Source of the DNA: Marsupella aquatica
Lineage: Eukaryota; Plantae; Marchantiophyta
Direction: 5' to 3'
DNA: 64,000 bases
Assembly (NCBI GenBank): GCA_973895155.1
Contig: OZ316891.1
Location: 9,611,875-9,675,874 of the forward strand
Positions 24,923-63,471 of the stretch are shown here, one piece after another. The notes beneath the pieces were generated by a model. That model ran no database searches and had not been told where the DNA came from. It saw only the letters and a program-made list of their open reading frames with translations. The number at the start of each line of letters is the position of its first letter. The first letter of the stretch is position 1. The translations under genes and the position numbers were made by a program.

Positions 24923-27900
24923 TGTCAAGGTTATGCTCTCAACGTAGTGTCAAATCCAGGTAGTGATGACTGGATTCTAGATAGTGCATGTACTTTTCAC
25001 ATTTGCTCTAGAAGAGATTATTTCAGTTCTTACACAGTTTCCAACGGGTCAGTGTTGATGGGAAATGGAATCCCATATCAAGTTGTTGGACTTGGATCTG
25101 TACGATTTCAGATGTTTGATGGTGCTGTGAGAACATTGAGGAATGTGAGACATATTCCCAGCATGATGAAAAATCTCATTTCACTTGGAGTTTTAGAGGC
25201 AAATGGCCATCAGTGGAGTTCTGCTAATGGTGTCCTTCAGGTTTCAATTGGTACTAAAGTTGTATTGAAGGGAAACAGACATTGCAATCTATACGTTATG
25301 GAGGGCAGTGTAGTCTATGATGAAGCCAATGTAACCTTATCTCATGAGGAGACGGCCCGGCTGTGGCACTTCTGTTTGGGCCACATGAGTGAAAAAGGTT
25401 TGGTTATTCTTCAGAAGAAAGGATTACTTTCTAATTTGCAATCTTGTAAGTTGGAATTTTGTGAGCACTGTGTGCTAGGGAAGCAGCACAGGAAACCCTT
25501 CGGAGTTGGAACTCACACCAGCAAGGAGGTACTTGAGTATGTACATAGTGATGTGTGGGGTCCCGCCCCTACTCCCTCACATTCTGGACGGTTACACTAT
25601 GTCACGTTCATTGACGATTACTCAAGGTATGTGTGGATATACTTTCTACACAATAAATCTGATGTTTTTGCCACTTTTAAGGAGTGGAAAGCCCAAGTTG
25701 AAAATCAGACTGGTAATAAGGTGAGATATCTTCGATCGGATAACGGCAGTGAATACAGTTCCGGTGAATTTGGAACGTATTGTAAGGAGCAGGGGATTAC
25801 CCGCCATCTCACAACAAGCTATACTCCTCAGCAGAATGGTGTTTCTGAGAGACTCAACCGAACACTATTGGACCGCTCGAGGAGTATGTTGAGTCAATCA
25901 TGCTTACCACATGAGTTTTGGGCTGAAGCTGTCAACACTGCAGCTTATTTGGTAAATTTTTCTCCATCCAGTTCTATTGGATTCAAGACGCCATTTGAAA
26001 TGAGGTACGGGCGTCCAGCAGATTACTCACATCTGAGGATTTTTGGATGTGATGCTTATGTGCTTACACCTTCCGAGCTTCGATCCAAGCTAGACTCCAA
26101 GTCGAAGAAGTGCATTTTCCTTGGTTATCAGAAAGGTGTGAAGGGTTATAGGTTATGGGATCCAGTAACCTGTAAGCTAATTGTCAGTAGAGATGTGTCC
26201 TTTAATGAATCCAGATCATCAAAGGAGGGGGAGAGTTCTCAGGATTCCCATACTGACAAGGGGAAATCTCCCATCCCAGACCGGGTTGAGGGGGAGATTA
26301 GTCATGATGCAGTTCATGACAGAAGAGATGGAGAAGCTCCGAGCTTGGAGCTGGTTCCTGTGATGGAACAAGAGGAGCAAATTTTTGCTAGGGTACCTCA
26401 AATTCAACCAACAGCAATAACAGATTAGCCTGAGTCATCTACTAGAAGAACTTCCAGTCGTTCTACTAGAGCTCCTACCAGGTATGGTCAATGGGCAGAC
26501 TCATCTAAGCTAGATGATATTGACATTGCACCTGATGAAGATGATATGGCTTTGATGTTGGAAGAAGGAGAGCCTTCTTCGTATAGTGAGGCTTGTGCTT
26601 CAGAGCAGAAGCATGAGTGGAATGCAGCAATGCAGAGGGAGTTGCAATCTTTGAGTGACAATAAGACATGGGAGCTGGTGGAGCTTCCAAGAGGTCAACA
26701 AGTGGTGGATACCAAGTGGATTTACAAGTTGAAGGACAATCCTTCAGAGGGTGGAGATAAGATCTACAAGGCAAGGCTTGTTGCCAAGGGGTTCACTCAG
26801 GAGAAAGGAGTCGATTACAATGAGGTCTTTTCACCGGTGGCTAAGTATTCCACAATTCGGATCTTGTGTCAGCTTGTTGTGTTTTTTAATCTGGTGATGG
26901 ATCAGATGGATGTTGTTACTGCTTTTCTCTATGGCAATTTGGAAGAGATGATCTTCATGAGACAGCCACTAGGCTTTATGAAGAAGGGCCAAGAGAACTT
27001 AGTTTGCAGATTGCTCAAATCCTTGTATGGATTGAAGCAGTCTCCCAGACAGTGGAACAAGCGGTTTGATGATTTCATGCTTGCTCAAGGTTTTACAAGG
27101 ATGGTGTATGATCCTTGTGTGTATAAAAAATCAGTCAAGAATGATGTATTTGGTTTCATCATTCTGGTAATCTATGTGGATGACATGCTAATTGTGGCTA
27201 AAGATCAATCTGAGGTTGACAGTCTCAAGGCGAAATTGAGCGCTGAATTCAGGATGAAGGATCTTGGTAAGGCCAAGAGGATCTTAGGGATGGAGATTTT
27301 TAGGAACTCTGAGACTGGACAGTTGTGCTTGAGTCAAGGCCAGTATGCGAGGAAAGTACTTGCACGATTCAACATGGAGAACTGTAAGCCAGTGAGTATT
27401 CCTTTAGCTTCACATTTCAAGTTATCATCAGTTTTCTCTCCTACGGATGCTGTGGAGAAAGGTCTGATGGCTAAGAATCCTTATGAGAAGGCAGTAGGCA
27501 GTCTGATGTATTTGATGACTTGTACTAGGCCTGACTTGGCCCTAGCGATGGGCAAGGTTAGCAGATTCATGTCAAATCCAGGGAAGGTACATTGGGAAGC
27601 TGTGAAATGGATTCTCAGGTATGTGAAGGGAACACAGGACTATGGATTACTATTTGATAACAGATCAAATAGAACGTTAGTTGGCTATGTAGATTCTGAC
27701 TATGGAGGCTGTCTGGATACAAGGAGATCTACAACTGGGTTTGTATACACTCTTGGAGGAGGATGTATCAGTTGGAAATCTACCTTGCAGAAGTGCATAT
27801 CTCAGTCTACTACAGAAGCAGAGTATGTTGCAGCAGCAGAAGCTGCAAAGGAAGCAATTTGGTTGGATAAGTTGATCGCGGAGATGGGTTTAGAGCATGG

Positions 27901-28141
27901 AAAAATGACTCTAAACTGTGATAGTCAGAGTGCTCTTCACTTGGCTGCTAACCAGGTGATGGATAGCAGGGTGAAGCACATTGATATCAGGTACCATTTT
28001 ATCAGGCAAGCAGTGTCTGATAAAACTTTTGAGCTAGTCAAGATTGATGGAAAGCTCAATCCCGCTGATGCCTTTACCAAAGTGATTCCTTTGGAGAGTT
28101 TCTCAAGACACCGTGCTACTTTGCAGGTTTTGCAGTTGTAG
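24923..28141 (+). pseudogene. pol: Copia pol: protease, integrase, reverse transcriptase and RNase H, with one in-frame TAG at 26426-26428
   Basis: WILDSAC (protease); WHxxLGH...CEHC, VHSDVWG, LRSDNGSEY and NGVSER (integrase); YKARLVAKG, SLYGLKQSPR and YVDD (RT); GYVDSD, TEAEY and ADAFTK (RNase H). The 24947 and 26546 ORFs are in the same frame. Confidence 0.93.
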
Positions 28142-28348: not shown

Positions 28349-28692
28349 TGTTAGATATTGCTCTAGTCTTGTGACTCTTGTGCTAACCACAGTTAGGCTA
28401 ACTTGGGTTAGGACCTAGCTAAGGTTAGCGGTAGTGTTGTTGTGCATATAGCCAGGGCTGATGCCAGACCCTGGTGGAACTTAGGCTCATTGTTACGGAG
28501 CTAGTTGAGAGATAGGGAGAGCTTGTGCTGTGGATGCTTGGTATGGCCGGTCGGCCTAGAGTGCAGTAAAGCTCTTGTGTGTTCCCGTGGATGTAGCCTC
28601 ATGTGGAGGTGAACCACGTATCTCTCTGTGTCGACTATTGTGCGTTGGATGGTTCATGGGCTTGCCGTTGCGAATGTCGTCTATGCTCAACA
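28349..28692 (+). repeat. 3' LTR of the copia element
   Basis: Direct repeat of 21995-22338, preceded by the purine-rich PPT (AAGAGTCAATGGGGAG) and followed by TSD GTCCG. Confidence 0.96.
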
Positions 28693-30367
28693 GTCCGATC
28701 CAAACAAAGTAATCTGATGGCCATGGAATGTCTGGAGCTGGAAGAGGGAAAGGTGCTATGACCTTTCTACAATGATAAACCCAACTCCAAAGGTCAGGAG
28801 TCTCAATCGTGGGTAATCTCAACTTGTCGATAGGTAGCCATAGAATACCACGAGAAATTGGAACCATGTCGTAGGTGTGTGGAAAAGGAAAAGACTCACG
28901 ACCAAACATAAGTGGAGGTAAAGGAGGTGCAAGAGGAGTGCGTGCGTCGATGAGTGACGTAATCATCCTATCAAACTGGGCGGGAAAGACAAAAAGAGGC
29001 TCAATGTCGGCAACAGAAGAGACAATAGGAGGCTGAGACATCAAAGGAGTAGGAGCTATAAATGGTACACTAGGGGGCTCTATAGTCTCAGGCTCAGTCT
29101 CAGGAATAGCCTCAGGAATAGGTTCATCTCCTTCCATGGTAGGAGAGGGAAATGAATCATCAAGGGGTGATAGGGTGGTATCCTCAATAGAGGAAAATGG
29201 ATCTGGAGGGGGTACTGGTGAAGGGGGTAAAGGCTCAGGGGTAGGAGATGGAGGGTGCTCAGGTGAAAATGTAGGAGGGATAGGGGAAAGAATGGGATCA
29301 GGTAGAGGGGGTGTAGGTGAGGATGGAGGAGGAAGTGAAGGGTCAGCAATAGGTAGCTCCGGCTCATCCACATCCATAGGGTGATCAGGCTGTGGTGAAG
29401 GTGCAAGGGGTGAAACATGAGGGGGTGGGACGGTATGAGACTCGGAAAGCAAAGCACAAATACAGTCAAGTAACTGTAGAGGGGTACAACTCAAGAGTCT
29501 AGTGGCCTCATCTACCAAATGTTGGTTGAAACCAGCCACACTAGCTAGTCGCTCAGCATCACCAACAAAATCAGTCCATGACGGATAAAAAGTGGAAGCA
29601 ACAAAAGAGGGAGAAGTCATCCCTGGTAGATCTGGTGCTGTCGTTTGCTCCACTGGAGGGGGTCTCGGAGATGTCGTCGGTGGTGGAGTCAACTCTCTCG
29701 CTAACTCTGGCTGAGGTAGCTCAAAGTGTCTCGCTCTCCTCCTCCAATCGCTCAGCTCCACTGGTAAAAAGCAGCCTCTCAAAAAGTAAATGTGCGCCAA
29801 GTAGGGTGTCAGATAGGTATCACCGATAGTAGACAAGACAGCCACCTGCTTGGCGATCACCTCCGAAAGAGCTAAGGCCCAGTTGATCCTCCTCTTTCCG
29901 GTCCATGATACAATGATAGAGCTGGTCAAGTAAACCATAGCCCTGGTGGGTTTGGTCGGATGAAAGATAGGTACAAGGAATTGGAGTAGATGAGCTAACT
30001 CCCGGTTCCTGCACTGATCAATCTTCCAACCAGACCTCCGGTCCCTGGTACCTCTAAAATAGGGGATAGTCAAGTCCTCTCCAACAGAGATAAGTCTCTC
30101 TCCCTCCTGGCTCAACTGGTACACCTCAGAAATAACGGCGGTGGTACACACATCAGCTGAACCTCTAGTAGAACTCCGAAAAGTGCCAGCTCGGGGTGGA
30201 CAAAGAAAATCGGCAATGATGGACCCATGCACCATATCCCAAGGAAGAAAAAGTAAGGAACTCAAGCCCATCTCTACCAGGTTACTAAGGAGTCTAAAGT
30301 AAGCCTTAGGACCTAGAAATAAGGTCACCCTAATGGCCTTACTAATTGGTAAGCTTCTGGAGGCCAT
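28693..30367 (-). CDS. Intronless TE-associated ORF (plant-mobile-domain-like N-half, Pro/Ser-rich C-half), interrupted by the copia element
   Basis: Long open frame containing GWKIDQCRNRELAHLLQFLVPIFHPTKPTR...RRINWA...TYLTPYLAHIY. From memory this resembles retrotransposon-associated ORFs in bryophyte genomes (not searched). The ORF now reads on into the LTR to 28556. Confidence 0.6.
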
Positions 30368-30759
30368 AGCTCAAAAAATCTGAGAAGGCTCTAGAGCTCT
30401 CCTCCTAAAAATAGTTAAGCATTGAGGCTCAAGAATGAAATCTCAGGGATCTAAGGTAGTTGCGCTACTATGGGAGAAGGAATGAACTGAAAAGAGATAT
30501 AAATGAAGGAGCTCTGATCAGGCGAAGCTCTCGAAATTGCAATTTCTTCAATTCCAAGAAATCAGAGAGCATCGATGACCCAATACTCCTCAATGTCTCA
30601 TCAATAGCAGTTCAGAATCGGGGTGAACATTCTCTAGGCAGCTGCGCTCCTATAGCAATTGAAATGAGCTCGAATGGTGGTCTATCAAGTGAGCACTGAG
30701 GTCGAAGCTCACGCCCTACTGCTGGCTGCCATGGACGTCCCTCGAAGAAAAGTAGAAAA

Positions 30760-35060: not shown

Positions 35061-36824
35061 CTACACATATCTTTCTTGAAAAAAGTTTGTACAAGGAATT
35101 CTTAGCACTTCTACATCACATTCACTTGCAAGGGCCAAAAGCTCTTTGAGATTATCAGTAGTAATTGTTTTGGCAACCTCACGCCCAGCGTCATTCTTTA
35201 GCTCCGCGATTTGGAAGGTGTGGGCAAACTTTAAGACTTCAACCGGCGGCACATCTTCATTGTAAGTAATCTCACCAATGTACATGTAATGTAGCACTGC
35301 CCGCAAGAAAGGAGGAGTCACACCATGTATTTCTATGTGACCCGTGTCTTTCTCCAACTCATCACTCCAGTTCCGTGTTTCAAGCATTTGATAGAAAATG
35401 GGTGATCTGCTACTCTTCACATTGTAAAACACATTATACCTTCTAAGAGATCTGAATGACTGTTTTATTCCATGAGTTGTTTCCATATCTATACTATTCA
35501 ATGAAATTATACACCCAAAACCTCCTCTAATTAATTTGTTTTTTGACTGTCATAATAAGAGCGGGAATAAGAGGTAGTCAAAGTAATCCTTGACATTCAA
35601 GGTCAGTTTCTAAGTTTCTGTTGGGCTTATCCTTTGATCAGTCTATTTTTCTTGGGAACCTGTACTGATGCTTGTCCTTAGGGGTCTTACTTCCACAAAA
35701 CTAACACATCACCTATGACAAAGCATATAGTGTTTTTATTGGTTCTAAAGACGGACTAACAAAAATTTGTGGAATAACATTAGGTTTTGTTTAATCAATT
35801 TTGAGCCTTATAAGAGAAAATAGGATTTAAGAACCATTTTGTGGAAAATTCCAAATTGAGTTGAGGGTGTTTGAAACTAAAAATCATCGCAGGTGATGGG
35901 ATGCTTCACATAGTGAGACCCGGGAGTGAGACCCCCGACCCCTTGTTATAACGTGCTACAACATGTCTATCTATAACTAAGGCTGATTCGTTAAATAGAC
36001 AAGTTCTCCGTAAATTCATTTCACCCAAACAGTCATGGGTGAAAAGAAGTACACAATACCCCAGCCAAAAACAAACTGGAGATGTTAGTTACTTGATGGA
36101 CCCCCAAAATGAAAAGTGTTACTTGATGGACCCCATGAGTGGTCCAGACTGTTGATAGACCTTCAGCCAATGTCCCACAAAACCTCATGGGGTTGGTTGA
36201 AGGGGAGAAAACTTTGGTTTGGGGTTCAATCAAATAAATATCTCAAAAACATGTGAGCAAACAATGCAAGGAGACATGAGGAAAATGAGCCTAGCGGGCT
36301 GAAGCTGCGTTACTCCAAATAGACTGTGGATGAAACTGTTGCAGTACAAGGTTGTGTAGTGGTTGGGTTTAGAGTTTTACTAGAATTAAACGGGTGGCTT
36401 GAATTGGTGGGTCAAATCCGTCCACTCGGTGCTCACATAGCTTACATATCAAGCCTTTGCTTCCCACTATATAGAAATTGATATCTCCATGGAATGATGG
36501 GTTAAGAGGAGTATCATGAAAGTTCTTGAGGTATGCCACCTTTGCTTCAGCAAGCTCTGCTCTAGTTGTGAGGACATTCCTGGTCTCTGCAAGCTTTGCT
36601 TGTGTGGCCTCCAACGATTCAACTAATTTCTTGCGGCAATCATTACACCAACCAGATGTGAACTCTTCTGGACTTTGTTTACTTTTGAAACACTTCCCAC
36701 AACGAGAAATTGTTCTGGGATGAATATTTACAGGAGAAGATGGTCTTGTGAAAAAGGTAGGGCGACTTTGAGTCCCAAATGAGCCAGATTTACACCATCC
36801 AATACCTTTGTTTCGCGGATCCAT
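35061..36824 (-). CDS. BTB/POZ-domain protein (At4g08455-like; CxxC...CxxC, coiled coil, BTB), 2 exons, ~265 aa
   Basis: Joining exons 36824-36381 and 35414-35061 gives ATRLIL|SSRSPIFYQMLE, IEIHGVTPPFLRAVLHYMYIG and VLKFAHTFQIAELK (BTB core). N-terminus has CGKC...CNDC followed by LAEAKVAYL. Confidence 0.82.
35680..35940 (-). repeat. Dispersed repeat copy 2, inside the BTB gene intron
   Basis: Diverged inverted homology to 8360-8660. Confidence 0.65.
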
Positions 36825-45212: not shown

Positions 45213-48200
45213 ATGCCTCCTTCCAATGACTTACCTGGAGATAGCCCACCCTGCGAAGGTGACGATCCGGAAGGCTCGCAGACTCTGGAAGAATGGATGG
45301 ACCCATCGTCTATCAAATTCACCCAGTCTACCATCAGCGAGATCTTCTCTAAGAAGCCGCTGCAGTCACGGAAAGCCGACGATCCCTCCAGCCGCAGTGG
45401 CGGAACCTACGCTGCAGCACTCAAGGCAGCCCCGGCTCAGTCTCTGGTAGACACGTTGCTACAATTGAAGACAGGATCCGTGACTGTAGAAGACATTCCG
45501 AGGATTCGCGTCTGTAAGCATGATGGTCAATTTTACTCCCTTGACAACAGACGCCTCTGGGTTTTCAAACAGTTTGGCAAGCCCATACCGGTCCAAATGG
45601 AGCAGCCATCAAAGGAGTTCTTTCAGAAATTGACGCGAGAAGGAGATGGAGATTCTGTTCGTTTCTTGGGTCCGCAAGACAAAGAGTCCGGGAAGGACAG
45701 CGACTCTTTCCTGGGCATTGTACTGAAGTGGTCTGTGGAGGACATCATGAATGAGAGAATGTATGTCAACAAGGTGAGCCTTCAGTGTTTCCAAATCACC
45801 AGGTTGTACCATATCAAGCATTGTGGTGTTCTCCTGGTCAATCTCAGCCATTTTCAGTCTTCACTACTGTAGTTGATGTTTTGGCATGCAGCTGTGTTTC
45901 AAAGCCTCATGACTGGTCGTTGTTTTCCAGGTGTATCCTATTCCACTCAGATTCCCCAATAAACAGGCCTATTACAAAGCATTCCATATGCCTACCTTGG
46001 AGAATACTCGCAGTCAAGTCCAACATAGCCTGGAAGTTATTGGTTCGGCTCCCTACATACCACTAAACTCTGTCGAGGAGCTCGGAACTCGCGATCCTAA
46101 GAAGAAAAATCACCTCAGGAATTTGAAACTCACGACTCTCGTGGGAAGTAACTTTGTTGAAAGAAACGCAAAGGATGCCCCTTGGAGGCCCAAACCGACG
46201 GACCTTTTAATCCTTTGTACATTGATTCCACAGGACTTCGAAGATTTGTGGAGGACTGGAGAACACTATACTTTGGCGGAAATCCGTTCTGCAGATGATT
46301 CAAATACCTCGGATGACTTTCTCTTTATCAAGGTCGTAGCTTATCTGCCAGAAGAGTGCCCAGAGTACCTTGAAATTCTTGAGGGCAAGAGAAGTTGGTT
46401 CGCTGTCTCTCTCGGCAATCTGGCAACAGCCATGAGAATATGGGACGCATTGAACCCGGATCCCAATATGCTCGAGTTTGAGGGGACGAGGAGAATACGC
46501 GATGGACTAAATCAAGATCCTACATTGCCGAAGTGTCCACGACAACTTGTGGAAGAAACTTTGTACTCGGAAAATTCGCAGGTAAGATTCTGTTAGTTCG
46601 TTACGGGAGGAATTGAAATTCAAGTACTGCAAGTTCAACAGAGAACAGGAGGATTGAACTCCTTGGAAAACAATGGATCTTATGATCTGTTTCTCTATTT
46701 CCAAAATGACGAGAGGAGAGAGGAGCGCGAGAGAAGGTTGACACATATTAATAGTTTGGCATATAAAATTGGCAATGAAAGACTTAAGCTGTACCGTCCT
46801 GTCCACAAGTGGAAAACTATGGATGGGAAGCCTTTGTTAATTTTCACTTTGGATGGTTCCAATGAAACTGAGCTCTCACATTTTTATGAACGTTTGCAGG
46901 CATGCTCAATCCCAGAAAGTGATCATGACATGGACCATGATTTAGAGAATCTTGTGGAAAAGTACTGCAACTTTCGCCAGCTCAATGAGTCACAAACAGA
47001 TGCTGTTAGGTGTACAGTGATGGAGCTTCTATTAGAAAAAGGTTTCCGGGTGAGACTAGTTCAAGGACCTCCTGGGACAGGCAAAACCAGTACAGTGGTG
47101 ACCTTGTTGTCAATCGTTAGTTGCTTGATGGAGCGGACCCTGGTTTGTGCCCCAACGAACCGTGCAGTTTCTGAGGTTGCCCAGAGGTTTTTGCAACTTT
47201 TACAATCCAGCCTGCTGGATGCTTGCCAGTTTTCTGATTTCACATGTCCTGCTTCAATCGGGATGAGATTTTGCAGACCATTGCAAATGGGTGACGTGTT
47301 GATGGTCGGTAACGAGGATAGACTGGAAACGGATACGATCCTGGGTAAGATATTTCTCCCTCACAGGGTAGAACGACTACTGAAGGCTCTTGCTCCTCAC
47401 TCTGGCTGGAGACACACCGCCCAACAAGTTGTTAACTTTTTGGCAGATACAGACAGCGAATATAAAATGTATGTGGAACTTTGGAAGGAGAACAGGCAAA
47501 GGGAAGCAGGCCTGAAAGAGCAAGGCGAGGCACCCGTCAACGACCAAGGAGAAATACACCTACTCGGATTTCTGCAATTTATAAGGAAAAGATTGAACCT
47601 TATTGGGCCGGACATGATCAGGAATGGTCATGTTATGTGCGAAGATCTTCCTAGCAAAAGGCTCAGTGACCTGCCAAGGAAAAGGATTCACCATTCATGT
47701 ATTCTGTTTGATACACTTATCAAGGCACTGGCAGATGAAAGTCTCACAGACTCAGGAGTAAGAGACTGTTTTAGTGGCGCTTGCGAATATCAAAATATCT
47801 ACAATGGAAACGTTTGCCCGGAATTTTGTTCTGCTAGGCAGAAACTTCTCAAGTTAATGAGCACTCATCCTGGATACGTTCTCAAGGGCTACGACTTAGT
47901 TCCAATGGCTGCGCAGGTGGAACACAATTGCGTCACAGATGCGTGCTTAGTTTTCAGCACCACCTCTTCAGCAGGACGGCGGTGTGTAAAGCAATCGGGC
48001 CTCTTTCAATATGCAGTCATAGATGAGGCCGCACAGCTTGTAGAAGCTGAGACGGCGATTGTGACACAGTTGCCAGGAATCGAGCGGGCACTCTTGGTGG
48101 GCGATCCTCAACAGCTCCAGGCTTTAGTTACCAGTAAGGTTGGTTTACTGTTTTGCTAATTAGAATGAATTACAACTAGACCTGCATACATATTATCTCT

Positions 48201-51200
48201 TTGCACTGACGAAAGGAACTGAACCGATGCCATCAGTAGTCTCTTGAAGGGACTTGTCCTAAGTTATTTCGTCTGCGGGATGGCCGTCCACCTCGTTGTT
48301 GTGTTTCATGTTAAGCTCTAGAATATGGAGACAGTAAAGCTTCGCACTTCCCAATGCTAAGGAAGGTCACTTGTTAATTTGAGCAGCAAACAGTCATCTT
48401 TCACAGAATGTTCATTTCCTCCAGATAAGGTTTGTGCGGCATTATGCGCATTCAGAAGTCGTTTGTGCGTACTTTGAGCTTCTGTAGTGTCGGCTGTGCT
48501 TTTGACAGATTGCCGAGGACAGTGGATATGGCAGAAGCCTGTTTGAGAGACTTCAGACTTTAGGTCATCCCTGCCATATGTTAAATGTACAGTACCGAAT
48601 GCATCCTGCAATCAATAAGTTTCCGAACGAGCAATTTTACCATGGGGGTGTCAATGATGGGTCCAACGTTCTTTCGGAAAAATATAGGAAGTCCTACCAA
48701 GACTGGTTTGGGCCCTATGCTTTTATAGATGTCACAGATGGGATCGAGGAAAGAGAGGAGAAAGAGACCAGCTGGAGAAATCCAGTGGAAGCTGAAGTTG
48801 TGCAGTACCTCATTACCAAGATTCGAGGAGGTGATTGCTACAACTGCGTTCTGGATTAAATTGTTTTCATATACATAAAATGCTACTTGCGGTTCTCTAT
48901 TCTGCAAATGCTTATGTAATAGGGCGGTACGATTCCCTGCACGCAACCAAGACAGAATTCTTACGTAGAGATGTTCTACTTACTCACCGTCTCTTGTTTT
49001 TTCCCAGTTGCTGCAGAGATTTCTGAGAGTCTCGATGTGGGAGTAATCGCTCCATACAAAAGCCAGGTGGAGTTGATTAGGAAGCGCCAGTGCAGTAACA
49101 ATACGATTTTGCCCTGTGGTGCCTGTGTTCAAGTCGATGTGAAAACAGTGGATGGCTTCCAGGGAGGAGAAAAAGATGTTATTCTGTTTTCAGCTGTGCG
49201 GTCTAATGCGGGGGGCCATATTGGATTCGTCGGCAATGCCCGAAGATTGAATGTCGCATTGACGCGTGGAAGGTGTTTTGCTCTTATCTCGCACCATTTA
49301 GATATCCTTATTGTCAAACAATCCTCCAATTAAGATTCATTTGCGCTGAATTTGCTCGACTTTCTCAGCACTTTCTCAAAACTTCCTGCCCGATCTCCAT
49401 GCTCTCACATCGAGCTACAATTCTGTGGTAGTTCAGATTATATATCCATTAGAGGTCGAAGTACGCAATCCGTTTATTTCACTGAGACACAGGAATGAAA
49501 ATTTTCCTAGTGAAGGAAGTCGAGTTGTTGGGATACTTTTCCAATACCATATACACGTTCGCTAGCGTACGCTTGGTAATGTGGGACTTGCTGTGCTTGA
49601 CAGGTATTGTGTTTGGATCGTTGGTAATGCAAAAACCTTAGCTGCTCACGATGAAATGTGGAGGGCACTTATCGTGGATGCAAAGAATAGGAATTGCTAC
49701 CGGAATGCTGGGAATGACCAGGGCCTGAAGAAGGCAATTGTTCGAGTGAAGAAGGAACTTGAGCAGTTTGCGAGTCTGCTGCACCATGATTCAATTCTTT
49801 TCAAAGATACCATTTGGAAGGTTTGGCGACTTCCTATCCTGGTTAATACTTCAGTGGACGAGAAGATACATCAACCATGTTGAATTGAATCCAAGTACAT
49901 ACTCTACCGTGTTAATCGAAGAATGGGTGTCGATTTTTCTACTTCCCTGTATTGGAGTAATAGAGTTTCGTCCTTTGAGCGTCCAATCATGGTTTGTCCT
50001 ATTAGAGGCAGGAGGTGCGGATTTTGCCTAATTCACAGCCAACTATATTTAACTGTGTTTACATTGCAGATTGTATTCAGCAAGGAATTTAAGGACACTA
50101 TAACAAAGATAAAGTCAACACAGAATCGCCAGACGATCCTTAATACCATACTCAATCTTGCAAACGGGCGTCGATCACCCTACCCAACAAATTGCACTGT
50201 TGCGGCGGACCTATACAAGAAAATGATACATGTCCAGCCCACTGCTGGCTTGACTCTAGTTTGGTCAATCGATGTAGAGAAGTTTGATCCAGTAAAGCAG
50301 GTGATCAGAATCTGGAATGTCGTGGAGTCGCATTACGTCCCAGGGCTCATCAGGCGTTTGGAAGCTGGGTTCTCCACATTCACAGGGCCGTACATAGAAC
50401 GTTGCTCAACAGTGAATTTCTTAAACAGGTAATCTTCATGAATCAATCCGTGGTCTTCTTTCCATTCAATCGATTTCTGTTTCTCCTAACTCAGTTCTTA
50501 AATCAAATTGATCCCAAATCTTACAGCAGGACCCTGGTTTCTTAACAGGACAAGAAAAGCGGTTGTACCTGCAGTTTGGAAGCGTGATGAATCATTCAAA
50601 TGGCATGAAGCCTCAGTCGTTGCGAGGAAAGTAGCAGGAGCTGCTTCGCAAGAGAACGAATCAAGCCATCTGGAATCACGGTTGGAGAAGGCGACCGTGG
50701 ATGAAAGCATATTGCTCATGAAATTTTACTCTTTGACATCTGGAATAGCCAGACAGTTACTAACAGCAGGAAATGGGTCGAAGATGGAGTTGCTCTTTGA
50801 GGTTAACGAGGAAGAGGCAGCCATTATACAGTATCCTTTCAGCACATTCATCCTAGGGAGATCTGGAACTGGTAAAATCCCACTTCTGTTCAAATCTGAG
50901 GCATGTATACCCATTCGGTAAAGCTCTCTTTCAGAACCTCGGCATGTCTATGGCTGACAAATATTCTTAAATGATTTCAGGTAAAACTACAGTGATCACA
51001 ACAAGGCTTCTGAAAATGGAGCAGCAATACAGATTAGCTGTCAATGGCTTCGCTGATGAGGATGGTATGGATGCAAAAAGGGTGATCACTTCCCAGGCCA
51101 GTGGAACTGTGTCCCAATCTTCGGGGACAGACTATTTGAGACAGGTTATGGTTACCCTGAGCCCCAAATTGTGCGCGGCAATCAAGCATCACATTGCTAA

Positions 51201-54200
51201 AACTTCCAGGTGCAACATACTTTGCGCATCATCTCACCTATCCGTATGTGCTCTCCTGGTCCTGAAGTGGGTATAAAGATGCAATACGTCGTATGTGACA
51301 TTTGTATGACTGATGAGGGACAACACTCTTCGATAGCTATAGAAGTGTAGTGATTCTTGTGCTTCTTCCTGTTATGAATTGCCCTGTGAGTTTTCTGCCC
51401 ATTGTCGGACTTATTTCTCTGAAATGTCGATGCATCCCTGTGACCTTATGCAAACCATATATATGTCCACCGTTGTCCACATTTGGTTTACCAAATTGTG
51501 ACATTGTCGTGGTTGTGGAATCACAATTGTGGTTCCACAACCATTTAACTGGCCTCATTTAGTCATAAGTACGACCTGGCCTACCGGCGACGAGTTTAGC
51601 TTGCTTATTTATTTTATATGTTGTGCCAGAACCATGCTAGCTGAAGACTCAGCAACAATTACGGATCAAAATGATCAGGAAGAGGACATGATGCTTGACG
51701 AGGAAGAAGAAATAAAGTTGATGGGAGGGATTCCAGACACATTAGTCAATATATCTCCCACTTCTTTTCCTCTCGTCATAACTTTTCGCAAGTTCCTTGC
51801 AATGGTAGATGGGAGTGTATCTTGCCCTTTTTTTGAGCAAGAAGACAGTCAGTTTTGTAGCCCTCCTGGCAAAGCTAGGTTGGAAGATTCTGGAAGCGCT
51901 TTTTCAGATGCAGAAGAGGAACATGAGTCTGACGGCTTCAGCGAAATTGACCAAGAGGAAGGCAAAGAGGAGTTCAAATGTCATGATGAAGACGAAGACG
52001 AGGATTCTGATGATTTCTCATCGGACGAAGATCTAGCCGCCGAGGAGGGAGATCCAATGCCTGAAAAGTCTGGAAGGAAACAGTCGGAAAGCACTCGAAA
52101 GGTGAAAAAAAGAATGACAGAAGTGACATTTGAGCACTTCGTTTCCTTCTATTGGCCGCATTTTAATCAGGACCTTATTAAACAGTTTGATCCATCGGTA
52201 GTGTTCACCGAAATTATATCCTTTATTAAAGGCAGTTTGGAAACTTTGCGTACTGAGAACGGAAGATTGACGAGGGAGCAATATTTGTCATTGGTTGTGA
52301 AAAGAACTTCTACCTTTGATGAGCGACAAAGAACTTCCATCTACCGCATTTTCCAGTTGTATGAAAGGCACAAGGCAAGTAGGAGGGAATATGATATTGC
52401 AGACTATTGCAGTCATTTGTATGCACAGATGAGACTTGGAAATTATGTGGGTCTGAAGTTCCACTATGTCTACGTGGATGAAGTCCAAGATCTGACAATG
52501 GCGCAGATTGCACTCTTCAAGTACGTCTGCTCCAACATAGAAGAGGGCTACGTATTCGCTGGGGATACAGCTCAAACAATTGCTAGAGGGGTGAGTTTCA
52601 GATTCCAAGAGATTCGTCATTTGTTCTACACAGAGTTTCTCGAGAGAGGGGACAGCTCTCTCGAAAGGAGATACAGGACAGGCCAGAGAGCGCTCGAAGA
52701 CCACCAATTTGACAATCACGAAAAATCGTCTGATGAGACAAATTCTAAGCGTGTAAAGGGCACATCAGAGAAAAGTACCCCTCACATGCCCGAGCTTCAC
52801 CATTTGAGCCATAACTTTCGAACGCATGTGGGGATTGTGAATATAGCCAACAGTATTGTGCAGTTATTGTACAACTTCTTCCCGAATACAATTGATAAAT
52901 TAAATCCAGAGTCCAGCTTAATACAGGGCGAGACTCCTATCTTCCTTGAAAGAGAAGATAATCATGAGTTTGTGACAAGCCTGTTTGGACATGGTGGAGC
53001 TGCCGGCGGAGGGGGTTGTGATTTTGGTGCTGAGCAAGTCATTCTCGTACGAGACTTGGCGACAAAGCATTCTATCACGGAGAAGCTGGGTAAAAGAGGT
53101 CTTGTAATGAGCGTGCTTGAATGCAAGGGACTCGAATTTCAGGTATTAATCACTTGGATATATTTTGTCGTGAATAGCTGAAGTTCTAATCGAATTCTAG
53201 ATTTTACTTGCATGCTCTTGACCCAATGGAGTCCTCGAAGCATCATGCAGGCCTTGCTTTTGTTTTCATAAGTTAACATGTGCATTGGCAGGACGTTCTG
53301 CTGTACAACTTTTTTTCGGATTCTGCTTTCGGAAGGACTTGGAGGGTTATTTACGCATATATGGCTGAAAATTTATCGGAGGATCAGAACGGGAGGAGCA
53401 TGTCTTTCCCAAAATTTGACGTCCAGAAACACAACTTGCTGATGAGTGAATTGAAGCAGCTCTATGTCGTTGTAACCCGTGCCAGGCAAAGGCTTTGGAT
53501 ATATGACGAATGTCCAGAACACCACAAGCCAATGCTGGACTTTTGGAATCAATCTGGATTGATTAAAGTGAAGCGTCTGGATGAAGACCTCATCCAAACA
53601 ATCCATGGAAAAAGCACTCCAGAAGACTGGAAGAGGAGGGGAATACAGGTAGTTTTCCACACTTGACCATTCCAACCTTCTGATGCTGAGAAGTTGCGAA
53701 CACTGCTTTGTGGTAGCTACTTACAATGCCCATGGTGATCGTAACGAACAAACGTCTAAAGCGGTTTGACCTTATTATTTTCCTTCTTAAATTGCTGGTC
53801 ATATCTGGCATACATGTCAATTAGGCTACTACTCACATATGGATCTGATTCACAGCCAATCGAATGATTTGTGAGTGCACCTTCTTCCCTTTTTTAAGTT
53901 CTCCATTTGCACAGGCATTTAGAACACCCACAAATGTGACAGGCACTGGCTCCACCCTCGCCGCTTTCATCAATTCAGATGCCTTTTGTCATTAATAACA
54001 TTTCACACACCCTACAATCATGGCGGTCCAGGTAGCCGCATCCCTATCAGACATCTTGTTGAACACACTACGTGCATTCTCCGTGCCCCTACACTTAGGA
54101 TACATATCAATACGGCTGCTCCGTACATAGAGATCTGGGTTCAAAGCCAGTTTCGTTGGTCAGTCTATGGATCCTCCTGCCTTCCTCGAGGCCTTGTAAA

Positions 54201-57200
54201 CCACACGCCTTGAGCACCGGCACAAAGGTGAACTGTCTGGATTTCTCCCCTCTTGTTGCATCTGTTGAAAAAGCTCCCGGGGCTTCACGGCTGCCCATCT
54301 CTCACATATCAGGCCAACTATTTATTCCGGAATACAACCGGTACTTCTACAGTTCCTGGTGCCCTTGCAGCCAGCTACACTTTCACTCGTTAACGGTTTG
54401 AGTTGTCATGGACCCAAAGTGCTTCCCCTGCCTTCTTGTGTTTTAAGTTTGGATATCTCGCACTTGTCTACCCACCAGAAAGTCCGAAGCAAGCTCGGCG
54501 GTTGTTGAATTGTTATACGCTTTCTCCTTGGTGTTGATGGCAACCTCATGGTTCTGACTATACCGTTTTGAACATGCCTCATATTTAGTTGGTTCTTCCT
54601 TGTGCTGGTCCTGTTTCTGAACAGATGTTCAACGACCATCACTATGATATGGCACAACTTAGCTTTGAAAGAGCCGGTGATTTGTATCGTGCCAACTGGG
54701 CTCAAGCTGCTGGCTTGCAGCAAGCTGGAGAACGACTCTTGGGCTCTGACACAAAAGCCGGTGCCCAGTTGTTCAGAGAAGCAGCGACGTTGTACCTATC
54801 ACTAGGGAAAGGAGAGTCCGCGGGCAAATGTTATTTGAAAATTGGAGAGGATAAGAGGGCTGGTAATGTTACTAGATTATCTCTTGACTCTGCGGTCACC
54901 CACCATCGTATCTTTATCGGCTGATGGGAAATGTTGCCTTTTGTGAAGTCTGTGCAACTAGATATATTAGATCTAGTGTGATGCGTTGGCTTCTTTTCCC
55001 AACGACTGAACTTGGAATTTTGAATTGTTTATTTCATTGCATATTCTCTTTTTGTTGGAGCCTCCTGGGTCCTCCTTATATTTAAGAACACATTCCTGGA
55101 AATTTATTGGAAACTGTACAGCCGCCGATGACATTCAAAGCGTACACGGCTAAAATACAGGAAATGCCAATTTTGGAGCTGACCTTTTGTGCACTGTTCT
55201 CACTAAGCATCGCGACTGAATTATTGGGTTTATAGTTTTTGGATATGTTTGCCGAGAACTTACAGGGAATATTCAATTGTATCTGTGATAGGAATCGTCT
55301 TCCGAGACTCCTGCAAACCTCCTCTATTTAAGGACGCAGGAGATTGTTTCATGGATGCAAAATGCTGGAAGGAAGCAGCCGAGGCATATAGCAAATCTTT
55401 CTGTGTTCGCCAATGCCTTCTGGCTTGCTTGAAAGGGAAACTTCTGGATCTAGGCGTTGATTTTCTTGGTGATTGGGAGAAACAGCTGAACAGCAGAAAA
55501 CAGGAAGGGGGAGAGGATACCAGAACCATGCAACCTGTCGACTGTGACGAGCTTGAACCACTGAAGGTAGACTACTTGAAGAAATGCGCTCTACACTATC
55601 ATAAGCAGAGAAACGCCGAGTTGATGATGAAATTTGTCAGACGCTTCCCAAGCGTTACCTCCCAGAAGGTATTTTTGAAACGGAGGGATTATTTTGACCA
55701 GCTCATAGAGGTGGAGGAGGGGGAGGGAAACTTCCTCAGGGCTGCAGACATGGCAGAGCAGAAGGGTGACTTGAAGCATGCTGTCAGGCTACTGGTACGA
55801 GGTGGCTGCCATAAACAAGCTGTGGGGAAATTATTAGATCGTGCTAGGTTTGAAATGCTATGGAGTGGTGGGAAACTAGGATGGCCTCTGATAGCAACAG
55901 CTGAGAGTCAGGATCTCCTGCAAAGGGTCCGAGATATAATTAGCAGTGGTCCTATTGATATCCAAAGCGATATTATGAAAGAACTTCAGCTTCTGCTTGA
56001 TTCAAATAGTGGATTGCAACACTGGGAACAAGTGACAGCTTCGACCAACATTCGTATCCAACTGATTGCTGGTCGGCAAGCTATCGATGAACTCCACGTG
56101 CGGTCTACAGCAAAGAATACCAGCTTGTCTGCATTGGTTCCTGAATTCTTACGAATCTGGGATATGTGGAGTGAGAAGTTGATATCACTTATTCAGGCTA
56201 TCGACAGAGCACAGAGGCGAAGAGATACAGTGGAGGATGAAATTTTCCTGCATAGTTCAAACACATACTTAGGCGTAGAGAAGCACACACAACCTCATTT
56301 GTTTCTTGTAGCTGACGTGTCTGCATCATGGCTGAAGAATGGCCCAATAACTCGTCTGCCTAATCAGGGCCAGAGAGGGCAGGTGTCCTCATCACAATTG
56401 TTCTCCTTATCGGAGACCTTTTGGGCGACACAACTATGGCAGGTTGGTTTAGGAACAATGAAAGTGATCGAAGATGTGCTTTTCAACAGCAGTGATGCAA
56501 GCTTGACGATCACAGAAGCCGCAAGATTTTCTAATGAGTTTTTCCAACCAAGAGTGGACCTGCTACACAAACTGTATTCGATTGCGAAAACTTTGGCAGA
56601 CATCATGAGCAAGAATATCATCCAGGACGAGTATCTGGATCTTCGAAACAGGTTGCAAAGGTATGGAGATATTATATATGACGCCTCCTTCCCTTACTGC
56701 TGCAGTAACAAGAGCTGGGAAAGTGTCTTAACTTTCCGACAAGAGGTAGGGGCAACCTATGACAGCATTGCTACCAGTTTAGTGGAACAAAGCCTAGGAC
56801 AGATTTCTCAACCAGCCCTTCCTGAGATAAGCTTTGAGACTGTCGGAAGGCTACAAATGCTATTACCTTTGTTGAGTAGACAGTGGATCAGAAAGTACGG
56901 TCCTGAAATACAGAAGAGATTAGGACAATCCGACTGGTCGAACATGTGGGTGAAATCCCTCCGCATGTATAGCACTCCGTCCGAACACTCTTGGCAATCG
57001 CCTGAGAATGAATGTGCGAAATGGGTGGATACAACTGAAATTTTCTGCGGGTCCGTGCAGAATGTCTACAAGCGCAATAGGAATACGATCCGTCCCTTTA
57101 TGTTCATGCAATTACTAGAGAGAGGTATAGTTGTGGACTTGGCTTGCAACACTAACCTGCACAGTCTGGTCTTACCTCAAAGCTTGGTGATGGACCACAT

Positions 57201-59349
57201 GACTGGTGACATGAACTTAAAGCTCTATTCGGCTATTCTGAACGTGCCTTGCAAGTGCAAGGGGGACTGCTTCCGGTTCTCAACTATTCGATTCGTCTCA
57301 AGATTGATTCTGGACATGCTGAATTCTTCAAATTATCAGATCGAAAAGTGGTTTGATGAAACGGGAATTGATTGGAGGGAATCTCTCCCCAGTTTAATTT
57401 TGCGTATGTTGGTTTCGGTGTTGACGATCTGCATCAACCTGAAGCCCACCGGCAAGAGCTTTGACAGAGACATTTGGAACCAAGCGATCACGACTTTGAG
57501 GACGGTGTTCAGGAATCAGAGTCCTTTACTAAGAGGCCTACCAACAAAGTTTTATTCGGAGCTCAAAAGGACTTTTACCAGTCCTAACAACCTACAGGAC
57601 GACGATCTACGACTGACATTTAAGAGGGCAATGGCTGCAAGCAATGATCCCCTTCTTGTGTTGAAGCATGGTGGTTATAGAAAGAAGATAGCTAATTGGG
57701 CACACCGAAACAAAGTACGGTATATGATCGTCACCCGGATACGTGAGAAAAGAATAGTATTTGGAACTGATTTTGAGTATAACAAGCAACCGGCTTGCGT
57801 GGCAAAACCCACAATTGAGAGTGAAGGAGCTATCCCTGCTGATTTGCCAAAGCTTGAACCTGTAGAATTCCATTCTGGCAAACAAACGGATGAGAATATC
57901 AGTACACTTCTTAGTGCTGGTCCTGGTGTTGTAGTCAGTGATAACGTAGATGGACAAGAAGAGTTGGCAGATGAAGAAAATCAATCTCCAGATGTATGGG
58001 TTGGTGATGACTCCACTAATGATCCACGTGTCGATTCCCGAACAATCCCTCCAGGACATGTGAGTATTGGAGAAGGTCAGACACTGGCAATTTCCATTAA
58101 AGCTAGATTGCTGCAACTGTTGGAAGACGCCCGACAAAGATTAAAGGAAGAGTTGTCAGCCACTGAAAAGTACCGGCGTGATACTCGGACAACGTTCTGC
58201 AAACTCAATATTCAAAGTAAGGTGTACGTGGAGTTATTTCTTTCTGAGGCGTGCCCCCTGAAGGTACCCATTTTCTTGATCTATACCCGCATGTTTGGCG
58301 ATCGGATGGGTCTGGTATATCTTGCTTCGGTCTTTTCTCCCTTGTATGTTCGTTGTCTGTCCATGTGGAGGCAGTGGTGTATTCTGGCGCAGCGTTAGTC
58401 GTGAACATACAACAGCCCCAGGTTTCGGATACTATCAATGGTTGACAAGGATAAGAGAGTCTTCCGCGGTTCGTTACAAATGTCTGTTGATCAGTTTGAT
58501 TTGACCTGTCAGATGAGACAACTTACAAACATTTGTGTCTTGTGGTTGGAAACACAGGCCACAACAGATGAGTGGCTTCAGGAACTGGAAACTGCTGTCC
58601 AGGCTTTGAAGGATGACGATAATTTTGATGAAATTGCGGATTCTCAAGATGCTTTGCAAAAGTCGGTGGTCATCTTAGATCCAAGGTAAGCCAGGGTTTT
58701 CCGGTTGGAGGAGCTAAGTTTTACGGTGTCGGTTTTTTTTAATCCCCGTCTTAATTTATTAACGATTGATGTTTAAGGTTAGCTACAATAGAGACAGCAA
58801 AGCACAGCTTACACCCCAGATGTCTTTCGTAGAGGAAAACTGGAAAGACAGAAATATAACAGAAAATTAAGATTTCAATTGATAGCAGTTTCGGGGGTCC
58901 TATCTCGAGTGTCCATCAGATGAATTCCTTGTGGAGTTCCTCACCATTTCTGTGCACTTGTTTCCTTTGGTTGTGAACGACTGCATCGATTTGAAGAGTC
59001 TAGGAAATACGGTATCTCCTGTAAAGTTGGTACAGGAACGGTTTTAGCAGGAAATCTCTTCTGTTAACTCGTGGGAACATGTCGATACAGGACGGAGGAG
59101 CACTTAGCCCAGGATTCTAAATCTCTGGAGGAGAAGCTTGCAGAGGTGCGGGGTCTGTTGGAGGCAGGAAAAGCACGATTCCAACAACAAATTCGTATGC
59201 TGGGTATTGGTTGTAAAGATCCTCAACACGGTATCTTGAGGAATATAGTAGAAGGCGAAATCAGCACTCCTGCCGACAAAGAACCGGTAACTAAGTCGCA
59301 GAAGTCAAAGCACAAGCCGAAAAAGAAGAAAAGGAAGAATAAGAAATGA
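45213..59349 (+). CDS. Giant (~3,210 aa, 15 exons) TRANK1-like double helicase: ParB-like domain, Sen1/Upf1-like SF1B helicase, RelE/ParE-like domain, UvrD-like SF1A helicase, TPR-like repeats, helical C-terminus
   Basis: Phase-consistent GT-AG exons: 45213-45773, 45931-46581, 46900-48138, 48509-48830, 49008-49272, 49604-49820, 50070-50428, 50549-50871, 50981-51209, 51630-53142, 53292-53648, 54625-54862, 55292-58263, 58558-58685, 59091-59349 (sum 9633 nt, no internal stop). SF1B motifs: QGPPGTGKT, CAPTNRAV, DEAAQ, GDPQQL, SLFERL, QYRMHP, TVDGFQGGEKD, RLNVALTR. UvrD motifs: GRSGTGKTT, YVDEVQD, AGDTAQTI, NFRTH, KGLEFQDV, LYVVVTRAR. Confidence 0.9.
53800..54345 (-). pseudogene. Decayed PLS-class pentatricopeptide-repeat (PPR) gene fragment, antisense within intron 11 of the helicase gene
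   Basis: Frameshifted minus-strand pieces read LFQQMQQEGRNPD, FTFVPVLKACG..LEEGRRIH, IDMYPKCRGTENARSVFNKMSDRDAATWTAMI, TFVGVLNACANGELKKGKKVHSQI and GCESDPYVSSSLIDMYAR. These are typical P-L-S motifs. Confidence 0.85.
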
Positions 59350-61289: not shown

Positions 61290-63471
61290 TCAACTTGTTT
61301 GAAAGACATTTTGTATCATGCCCCTTGGTGCTTCTGCTGCGGCAGACTCTAACCTAGAGACTTCTTGGGAAGTTAAGCGCCAGCCAAGAGCGCCTAGATT
61401 ATCCTTAGCTTGTTTCACATTTTTTACCCCCGGTATAGGAATTGCTCCTTTGCAAATACACCAGTTGATTGCTACCTAAATGCGCACCAAGATACATCGC
61501 AGGTAAGCTGAAAGAAACAAACGAAAGTGGGGAAAGGAACAGAAAGCACTCAAAATGGACCGAGCAAATGCAAAGTGGCCAATTAAGTGGACTTTGCTTA
61601 GTGAGGGAAAATAAACATACCTGTGACACGGTCTTCTTTCTCTTTTCTGCAATTGATTCCATCAACTGGAGGAGAGGTCCTAAACCGGGTAAAATCTGCC
61701 CAAAGAGGAAACCGCTGCAGAGATTTTGGCTTGGGTTAGATTATGGCCAGCAAGCTCTAGTAGACTCCCTCACATCCATGGGGCACGGTTAACTAAACAA
61801 GCTTATTCAATCAGAGAATGCCAATACAGCTCAAATGTGAAGGAATTCCTCACCGTGGGCCTGACGGCAACTTCGAGGCAGAGTATTTTCCAGTGAGCAT
61901 CCCTAGACCAAGCGGGCTATAGGCTATCAATGCGATCCCAAGGTCATCACATATGGCTTTCACTTCTCTCTGATCTGGCCCATAGCTTATGAGGGAAAAT
62001 TGGACCTGTCCAATATGCAAATGTAGCACTCAAATTTTAGACTAGAAGTTCCTTTGTTACATTCTATCGTGAGAACCAATTCGAGAAAGTTGAGATAGAA
62101 ACTATGCAAGATTTTCAACCAACCAACCGCCTAGAAAGACTCGGAATAGACCACAAGTGTTTGACGCATACCTGGAGGGCACTAAGAGGCACTCCCTTCC
62201 TTTCGAGATATCGATGCACACGAATAAGCTGCTTAGGGCCATAATTGCTCACCCCAACAGCCTTTACGAGCCCCTGCAAGTTTTGATTATTGGATGTTAT
62301 CACTTGTCATTAATACAATTATATCCTTATCTAAACGATCGATTTTGGGTATAGTTTTCCCGCGGTGACAATTTTAGTGAAGCTCCACAGCTGGGGAAGA
62401 TTTTAAAATTACTATCAATTAATTTGAATTTTGAAGTATAAAATGAGGTAATGCTGTCAAAAGAATATCTGATTTTGAGGATGCAACAGACATGGAGTGT
62501 TGGTAAACTTTAAACTGTATACCTCTTGGTAAACAGCTGCCAGACCATCCCACAGGGCCCGCTCTTGAAAGGGGGCGTAGTTTGAAGCAGACCAATGTAG
62601 CTGCCCAATGCCCAGTTGATCGATCTCTAGCCTCTCTAATGAAGCCCTTCACATTGTGAGACGTACAGAGGATTGTTAACTTAATTGACGCTCACGAGGA
62701 TGCAATACAGAATTACTGTTCAGTTGAAATCTTTTGAAGAATACATCCATCCAATTTCGACGTTCCTTGAAGAATGATAACGAAATTCGTCAATCGTCAT
62801 ACTTGCATGCGTTGACAACCTGGCCCGGTGTCAGCCGCCATGGATACGCAGCAAATTTTGTTGCAATTGCAATGCGCTTCCTCTTCTGTTCCGCTCCTGT
62901 AGCAACATGTCAACCACACCTCTGTTTAAAATGTAAATTGATCTGTCCATTAGAACCTCTCTGCAACATTATCATCGTCCTCTACATTGTCTGCTGAATT
63001 GGACGAATGACTGGAGACTGAGTGAGCGAGACTACCTGGAAACTCCCGGATAAAGTTGCCCAGCAACAGTTCACTACGCCCATTGAGACGACCCGTGCCA
63101 TACGAATCAGCCGTGTCAAACAGATTGACTCCATTCTCCACCGCCAAGTTGAAAACTTGCTGGAGCTCTGCATCCATTGAGGGTTCGTAGTTCCACAACA
63201 ACGTGTTTCCCCACGCCCAAGTCCCAAACCCCATTGGCGATACTGAAAGAGGCCCCACCTTTACCTGTCAGCCACAGCCAAAACACCATCTCCTGCGCCA
63301 TTAGCCTCATTTTCATTCCCATTTCGCAAATTTTCCCATCGCCCACATTTCCACCCACAAAATCTGTTGCATACTCTGAACACATTCTCTCAAGTTGCCA
63401 AAGTCACAGCTCCTGTCGAAGATCTGAGCAGCGGAACATCGTCATACCTCTCGCTTTTGGAAGGGTAGTTG
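61290..63471 (-). CDS. PLR1: Pyridoxal reductase (aldo-keto reductase), PLR1-like, plastid type; first exon not located (probably beyond the window)
   Basis: Exons: 63471-63448 (tentative micro-exon QLPFQKRE), 63264-63036, 62896-62803, 62646-62523, 62273-62172, 62005-61854, 61714-61621, 61475-61290. Motifs: VGPLSVSPMGFGTWAWGN, FDTADSYG, IATKFAAYPWR, GIGQLHWS, GLVKAVGVSNYGP, IAYSPLGLGMLTGKY, QVAINW, MIQNVFQT. Confidence 0.9.

Follow-up and report, generated by a model that had tools for sequence, protein, structure and literature searches.

The 64,000-nucleotide window analysed here, from the liverwort Marsupella aquatica (assembly GCA_973895155.1, contig OZ316891.1, positions 9,611,875 to 9,675,874), carries on its forward strand a gene of 15 exons and 14 GT-AG introns, which runs from an ATG at 45213 to a TGA at 59349 and, as read from the window sequence, contains no internal stop. 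Its predicted product of 3,210 amino acids joins in one chain a ParB-like head, a Sen1-like helicase, a RelE fold, a UvrD-like helicase and a region resembling tetratricopeptide repeats (TPR). The last four parts make up a core family that is already known and annotated in plants; what is new is the head, of the Tox-ParBL1 type, the five-part form that results from it and the finding that seed plants appear to have lost it.

Gene structure and splicing

The splicing pattern was examined with a sequencing run (X1) that is presumed to be RNA from a relative about 92-94% alike, and whose intron-sized GT-AG joints behave like spliced RNA. In agreement with the predicted intron lengths, contigs of this run skip 10 of the 14 introns (3, 4, 5, 6, 7, 10, 11, 12, 13 and 14), which bears out the stop-free 15-exon gene of about 3,210 amino acids proposed in an earlier note on this DNA. 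The donor of exon 13 was set at 58263 because the X1 contigs use it, and an alternative donor at 58221 (3,196 amino acids) was dropped. Introns 1, 2, 8 and 9 gave no spliced joint among the X1 contigs, one of which reads 46 nucleotides into intron 8. These four introns are supported because protein models of the liverwort Calypogeia fissa cross them (P0001 and P0003 for introns 1-2, P0005 for introns 8-9) and because a Klebsormidium protein follows the model without a break in a single BLASTP alignment (amino acids 175-3141, 34%).

The four introns left unspliced in X1, the contig entering intron 8 and the annotation of relatives as separate proteins (three for one C. fissa copy, two in Klebsormidium) could be taken to mean that the model merges at least two separate genes, or that the ParB-like exon belongs to an unrelated neighbour. 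Such a merger is highly improbable. One X1 contig joins exons 5-6-7-8 and so connects the last part of the first helicase, by way of the RelE-like exon, with the beginning of the second, and exon 1 holds both the ParB-like domain and the residues at which conservation within the helicase family sets in (amino acids 175-187). Moreover, five-part proteins are annotated as single products in Ceratodon, two Adiantum species, Selaginella and Closterium.

The closest proteins are those of C. fissa (78% over the first 1,167 amino acids). One copy is annotated there as three proteins (P0001, P0004 and P0005), with breaks inside exons 3 and 8, and the other (P0003) is without model amino acids 1163-1665, a gap of about 500, and approximately 2260-2349. 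Either both copies are damaged or their annotation or assembly is faulty.

Intron 11 of the window gene holds a repetitive insertion (53700-54520), where numerous contigs stop or lose their match and where 400 and 569 nucleotides are skipped by two joints; it is likely a small transposon remnant. A second genomic copy of exons 4-6 with their introns, about 90% alike over window positions 48560-50010 and diverging in intron 6, is found in the DNA runs X2 and X5 and is a recent partial paralogue. X1 also shows a 33-nucleotide in-frame difference at 51863-51900, within the acidic insertion of the UvrD-like domain.

Table 1. Coordinates of the five-part gene and its predicted domains in the window
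Feature	Position	Strand	Remarks
Whole gene	45213..59349	+	15 exons, 3,210 amino acids
Exons 1-5	45213-45773, 45931-46581, 46900-48138, 48509-48830, 49008-49272	+	
Exons 6-10	49604-49820, 50070-50428, 50549-50871, 50981-51209, 51630-53142	+	
Exons 11-15	53292-53648, 54625-54862, 55292-58263, 58558-58685, 59091-59349	+	
Tox-ParBL1-like domain (amino acids 28-152)	45294..45668	+	ParB/sulfiredoxin fold; FTQS-TI...F, PxIRV, SLDNRRLWVF
DUF6469 (PF20073)	46177..46461	+	Pfam E 8e-7, above cut-off
Sen1/Upf1-type SF1B helicase, exons 3-6	46960..49750	+	Walker A 47065-47088, Walker B near 48022
RelE/ParE (BECR) fold domain, exon 7	50070..50428	+	Predicted structure
UvrD/PcrA-like SF1A helicase, exons 8-11	50856..53486	+	With acidic insertion
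Second helicase, Walker A	50856-50988	+	Across intron 8
Second helicase, Walker B (DEVQD)	52477-52491	+	
TPR/SNAP-like helical repeats	53595..56000	+	End of exon 11, exon 12, start of exon 13; weakly supported
C-terminal region	56001..58263	+	Long, helical, fast-evolving; no Pfam family
Basic tail KPKKKKRKNKK	59314..59346	+	Putative nuclear localization signal; from sequence

A Tox-ParBL1-like head

The AlphaFold (AF2) model of the ParB-like domain, built on 110 rows, has a predicted local distance difference test (pLDDT) of 87. In VIA-align, only 12 chains in all reach a Z of at least 2, and the best of them are Atu1540 (Z 8.0, with a root-mean-square deviation (rmsd) of 2.9 over 91 aligned residues), sulfiredoxin (7.6), SerK (6.4) and KorB (6.1). 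Foldseek gave no match at E ≤ 0.001, its top rows being Srx, Noc and ParB at E ≥ 0.015; single-sequence and profile searches of the PDB returned nothing, and no family in Pfam, NCBIfam or PADLOC was found on the domain.

A search of 1.84 billion representatives with exon 1 (amino acids 28-152) gave 645 relatives at E ≤ 0.001. Over the 110 rows the DNRRL motif is 95-100% conserved (D111-N112-R113-R114 at 95-99%), and every plant fusion has it intact; T37 is T or S in 96 of the 110, and S40 is also conserved; within the domain lies a streptophyte-specific insert, SY..A..A. Tox-ParBL1 was defined by Zhang et al. 2012 by its ParB fold, an N-terminal S/T and an N-R-R motif, and was described as the tip of HINT/RHS/FilH toxins with eukaryotic members, plants included (PMC3482391). 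The window domain shows both marks, the N-terminal S/T and [NT][RT][RT] instead of DGHHR. A helicase fusion goes unmentioned in the ParB section of that paper, whose supplements could list one.

Among 66 scanned relatives, six carry PT-HINT, RHS or haemagglutinin/PT-TG parts with the ParB-like domain at the very C-terminus, and in three relatives it comes directly after the HINT cleavage site. The toxin-tip relatives are 37-39% identical to the window's domain (four aligned). A scan of bacterial genomes yielded 29 loci, including PT-HINT and RHS loci in named genomes. The head is a genuine relative of the domains that tip bacterial polymorphic toxins and fits the Tox-ParBL1 definition, with the difference that the bacterial domain sits at a C-terminal tip whereas in the window protein it stands, with its insert, at the N-terminus of a helicase.

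In two of the four bacterial loci inspected, an open reading frame (ORF) of the DUF7660 family lies directly downstream of the ParBL1 tip, placed like an immunity gene (L001:2775-3068 in a gammaproteobacterium and L016:2750-2971 in Gracilibacillus), which makes DUF7660 a candidate immunity protein for Tox-ParBL1. No Imm-SUKH/Imm44 partner was found in these four loci.

A RelE fold between the helicases

For exon 7 the AlphaFold model (28 rows, pLDDT 87) is assigned to the BECR fold (beta-alpha-alpha-beta-beta-beta). Compared by VIA-align with 48,161 chains, its 15 best matches are all RelE/ParE (Z 9.1-7.5, rmsd 2.3-4.0, 76-99 residues), the first unrelated fold following at Z 4.6. The Foldseek ranking agrees with RelE/ParE, again with no match at E ≤ 0.001 (best HigB2, E 4.9e-3), and the Atlas model of the C. 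fissa copy matches ParE/RelE clusters (TM 0.55-0.57). The ParB-like and RelE-like folds announced in the earlier note were thus recovered by AlphaFold with VIA-align, and by Foldseek at no E below its threshold. A homologous segment is present in 121 of 122 family proteins, the exception being a fragment that starts downstream, and the 121-row alignment conserves W1084, S1089, G1118, R1120, D1153, Q1162, W1167 and R1181. A word-based search with exon 7 among proteins of up to 2,000 amino acids gave no match, a blank that is false.

The persistence of this fold, with R, D, Q and W near-invariant across the family, raises the possibility that it is itself a real effector, a ribosome-dependent or free RNase with a non-canonical site, and the head an optional second one; the loss of the head in seed plants, in which the RelE fold persists, would then make sense. 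BECR-fold RNases are described as able to use alternative active sites (PMC3710099), and bacterial RelE as cutting mRNA on eukaryotic ribosomes (PMC11980606); helicases, UvrD and TRANK1 are not mentioned in the latter, a RelE/ParE survey. We consider this explanation improbable. The exon has no family in Pfam, NCBIfam or PADLOC, the catalytic RelE/YoeB/YafQ Pfam families included, its identity to solved toxins is 9-16%, and a C. fissa paralogue keeps the ParB-like domain and the SF1B helicase with no RelE-like match.

Two helicases and the C-terminal half

The two complete motif sets of superfamily 1 (SF1) helicases recognised in the earlier note, first Sen1/Upf1-type and then UvrD-type, were confirmed by motifs and by Pfam, where AAA_11, AAA_12 and UvrD-helicase all exceed their cut-offs. 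Motifs I-VI run GPPGTGKT/DEAAQ/GDPQQL/QYRMHP/TVDGFQG/NVALTR in the first, which has AAA_11 and AAA_12 as expected of SF1B, and GRSGTGKT (split by intron 8)/DEVQD/GDTAQ/NFRTH/ECKGLEF/LYVVVTRAR in the second, with UvrD-helicase and UvrD_C as expected of SF1A. Since GPPGTGKT is invariant in 41 aligned rows, and GRSGT and DEVQD in 40, both motors are likely active ATPases.

Among solved structures, those closest to the SF1B part as found in C. fissa are Sen1-type (E 6e-57), and the SF1B core is shared with Sen1/senataxin and Upf1; unlike these, the window protein is without their N-terminal domains and carries four further modules. DUF6469, a family on which the literature search found no paper, likely represents the stalk/beta-barrel part of the Sen1-like helicase and not a separate module. 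For the second helicase, PcrA is the best solved relative, though a weak one (E 1e-4). Clusters resembling the UvrD core occur in diatoms and bacteria, a lead only, and a search with this core in 301 genomes of one bacterial phylum gave two weak matches. Each is an ordinary PcrA/UvrD-like ORF that lacks any N-terminal extension, so that this query revealed no bacterial source for the RelE-UvrD module in these genomes.

The TPR-like helices that the earlier note had placed in exons 11-13 received weak support, from a SNAP match on exon 12 (E 0.005, below the Pfam cut-off) that rises above the cut-off in one homologue; the region is conserved in 121 of 124 proteins. The basic tail is present as described, with a similar one in C. 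fissa P0003.

Distribution and origin of the family

A search with C. fissa P0003 recovered 654 proteins (1,441-4,585 amino acids) at E ≤ 1e-10 among 7,982 scored, ranging from Klebsormidium, Closterium, Ceratodon, Selaginella, Adiantum and Cryptomeria to grasses such as wheat. They share the four-part core in a common order (families DUF6469, AAA_11/12 and UvrD). That the architecture is a rarity is not supported, the core being pan-streptophyte and the five-part form present in at least five lineages, with the ParB-like head seen in Closterium, moss, liverwort, lycophyte and ferns. Our literature search found no description of the five-part architecture, the Tox-ParBL1 head or its loss in seed plants, within a coverage that excluded subscription papers and supplements.

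The best 120 of the 654 matches were examined. A ParB-like head is found in five of the six full-length matches from non-seed plants (Ceratodon, two Adiantum, Selaginella and Closterium) and in none of the 113 other rows, 112 of which are named seed plants (3 Cryptomeria and 109 angiosperm). In these 113 rows the N-terminal extension is short, the median being 40 amino acids over all rows versus 173-233 in the headed proteins. The sixth full-length match, Klebsormidium GAQ79821.1, begins at model amino acid 175, and the consecutive accession GAQ79822.1, from a contig equal in length, ends in a ParB-like domain with the same SY..A..A insert, so the two accessions are likely one gene split by annotation, or else represent a state before the fusion. 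Two further Closterium proteins and a C. fissa pair consist only of the ParB-like domain and the Sen1-like helicase. This distribution of the head suggests that land plants likely inherited the five-part form from their ancestor, and that seed plants likely lost the head and multiplied the core in tandem; first exons missed in seed-plant annotations may also explain the apparent absence.

Several family copies share a contig in Cryptomeria, Persea, Vaccinium, Citrus, Mikania, Castilleja and Deinandra, and internally duplicated forms reach 4,000 amino acids. Copy expansion, internal duplication and domain loss are circumstantial signs of a conflict-like turnover. As to the origin of the protein, the earlier note had proposed a plant analogue of a prokaryotic defence operon, fused into one ORF. 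Its parts differ in origin, the SF1B part being Sen1-type, and no bacterial counterpart of the UvrD part appeared in the 301 genomes of one phylum, which leaves that view unsupported: the protein is a mosaic that was assembled in streptophyte algae, and descent from a bacterial operon by fusion has not been demonstrated for it.

Known systems and possible function

Plant DUF6469-AAA_11/12-UvrD proteins have the same four-part core and order as the window gene and are named in databases 'UvrD-like helicase ATP-binding domain-containing protein' or 'TPR and ankyrin repeat-containing protein 1', names that mention neither the RelE nor the ParB fold. A UvrD-like helicase followed by TPR-like repeats is also the arrangement of animal TRANK1 (KIAA0342/LBA1), whose name plant homologues bear, and Anantharaman and Aravind are reported to have noted in 2003 a RelE-helicase fusion in TRANK1-like eukaryotic proteins. 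Unlike TRANK1, the window protein has a Sen1-like helicase and a ParB-like domain in front, and no ankyrin family was found on any exon or on P0003. Animal TRANK1 is reported to be induced by IRF7/interferon together with OASL and ZNFX1 (PMC4505898).

Among prokaryotic systems, CnuH of CoCoNuT is described as a UPF1-like helicase joined to a RelE/colicin-D-like domain (PMC11090510), and a RelE-helicase fusion is reported next to Tiamat (bioRxiv 2026.09.30.754977). CnuH, Mokosh MkoA and Gabija GajB couple an SF1 helicase to a nuclease, a coupling that the window protein would share. PADLOC, run on six segments of the protein, returned weak matches to MkoA (E 1e-15) and GajB (E 8e-8) that reflect generic helicase motifs only, and none to GajA, the OLD-family nuclease expected of Gabija. 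In contrast to these helicase-nuclease systems, the window protein has no McrBC, HEPN, PLD or GajA partner and holds two helicases in one chain.

The function we tentatively favour, at a probability that falls a little short of even, is that of a latent nucleic-acid-gated defence enzyme directed against viruses or transposons. The support is circumstantial and consists of the toxin provenance of a head with an intact DNRRL motif, the tandem copies, the domain turnover, the prokaryotic helicase-RelE analogues and the interferon induction of TRANK1. Under such a mechanism the two motors would engage foreign or aberrant RNA or DNA and switch on the N-terminal ParB-fold domain. The Sen1-like motor would track RNA or RNA:DNA hybrids in the 5'-3' direction, the RelE fold between the motors might bind the ribosome or RNA and would probably not carry out the canonical RelE reaction, and the UvrD-like ATPase with its TPR-like repeats could serve as the sensor or switch that holds the protein shut. 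The Tox-ParBL1 domain would be the effector, cleaving a phosphoester in nucleic acid or in a nucleotide such as NTP or NAD.

A number of points weigh against a defence role. The nuclease activity of Tox-ParBL1 was predicted, not demonstrated, by the paper that defined the family (PMC3482391). The link to TRANK1 comes from database names, and no data on the function of any plant member were found in the literature searched. Tandem copies are, besides, common in many plant families. In the RelE fold, R1120, D1153, Q1162, W1167 and R1181, judged by eye from the 121-row alignment, appear to lie off the positions of the K/K/R/R/Y catalytic set of RelE, and where angiosperms have lysines in strands 2/3, basic residues are missing from the Calypogeia copy. 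As the usual catalytic register seems absent, the RelE-fold domain may be non-catalytic. On one X1 contig, moreover, exon 7 shows 11 silent versus 8 amino-acid-changing differences (a hand count over 19 of 20 listed differences), which indicates purifying and not positive selection on this exon.

Several of these observations would suit the main rival explanation, a doubtful but serious one, in which the protein is a housekeeping helicase of RNA or genome maintenance: a Sen1 paralogue with a UvrD-like motor that would clear R-loops, stalled transcription or stalled ribosomes, its toxin folds having been tamed into modules that bind RNA or nucleotides, much as sulfiredoxin is a domesticated ParB fold. 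The purifying selection and the missing RelE register fit it, as do the closeness of the SF1B part to Sen1, the invariance of both ATPase motif sets, the retention of the family from Klebsormidium to grasses and the putative nuclear localization signal. It is less easily reconciled with the copy-number expansion, internal duplication and domain loss, with the mid-exon breaks or 500-amino-acid gap annotated in both C. fissa copies, and with a ParB-like catalytic motif as intact as in bacterial toxin tips.

A broader scenario, rather unlikely, would be that an antiviral machine in a single chain arose in streptophyte algae, where a Sen1 motor and a RelE-UvrD-TPR module were combined with a bacterial polymorphic-toxin warhead. 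It would have remained armed in mosses, liverworts, lycophytes and ferns and lost its ParB-like toxin in seed plants, and the 2,700-amino-acid core of crops would be an unrecognised family of nucleic-acid-sensing immune receptors parallel to animal TRANK1/ZNFX1. Most land plants, among them wheat, barley, citrus and apple, have the core, frequently as tandem copies, and this large family is unstudied; the RelE fold throughout the family together with the toxin-tip domain on its non-seed-plant forms provides a first testable hypothesis for it. The system is tractable through moss or liverwort knockouts and through a 125-amino-acid domain with a single predicted catalytic motif; it would offer the first eukaryotic context for assaying Tox-ParBL1 and bear on the role of TRANK1.

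Surroundings of the gene

No sign of a defence cluster was seen among the neighbours in the window, which are a major facilitator superfamily (MFS) sugar transporter (1754-3475), a BTB/POZ exon (35061-35549) and an aldo-keto reductase exon (62950-63267), all on the reverse strand. A Ty1/copia long terminal repeat (LTR) retrotransposon gag-pol (gag, zinc knuckle, integrase and RVT_2) with in-frame stops occupies 23860-28141 on the forward strand. Directly after its pol, on the opposite strand, a stop-free frame of 604 codons without a Pfam match (28556-30370) is possibly an extra antisense ORF of the copia element.

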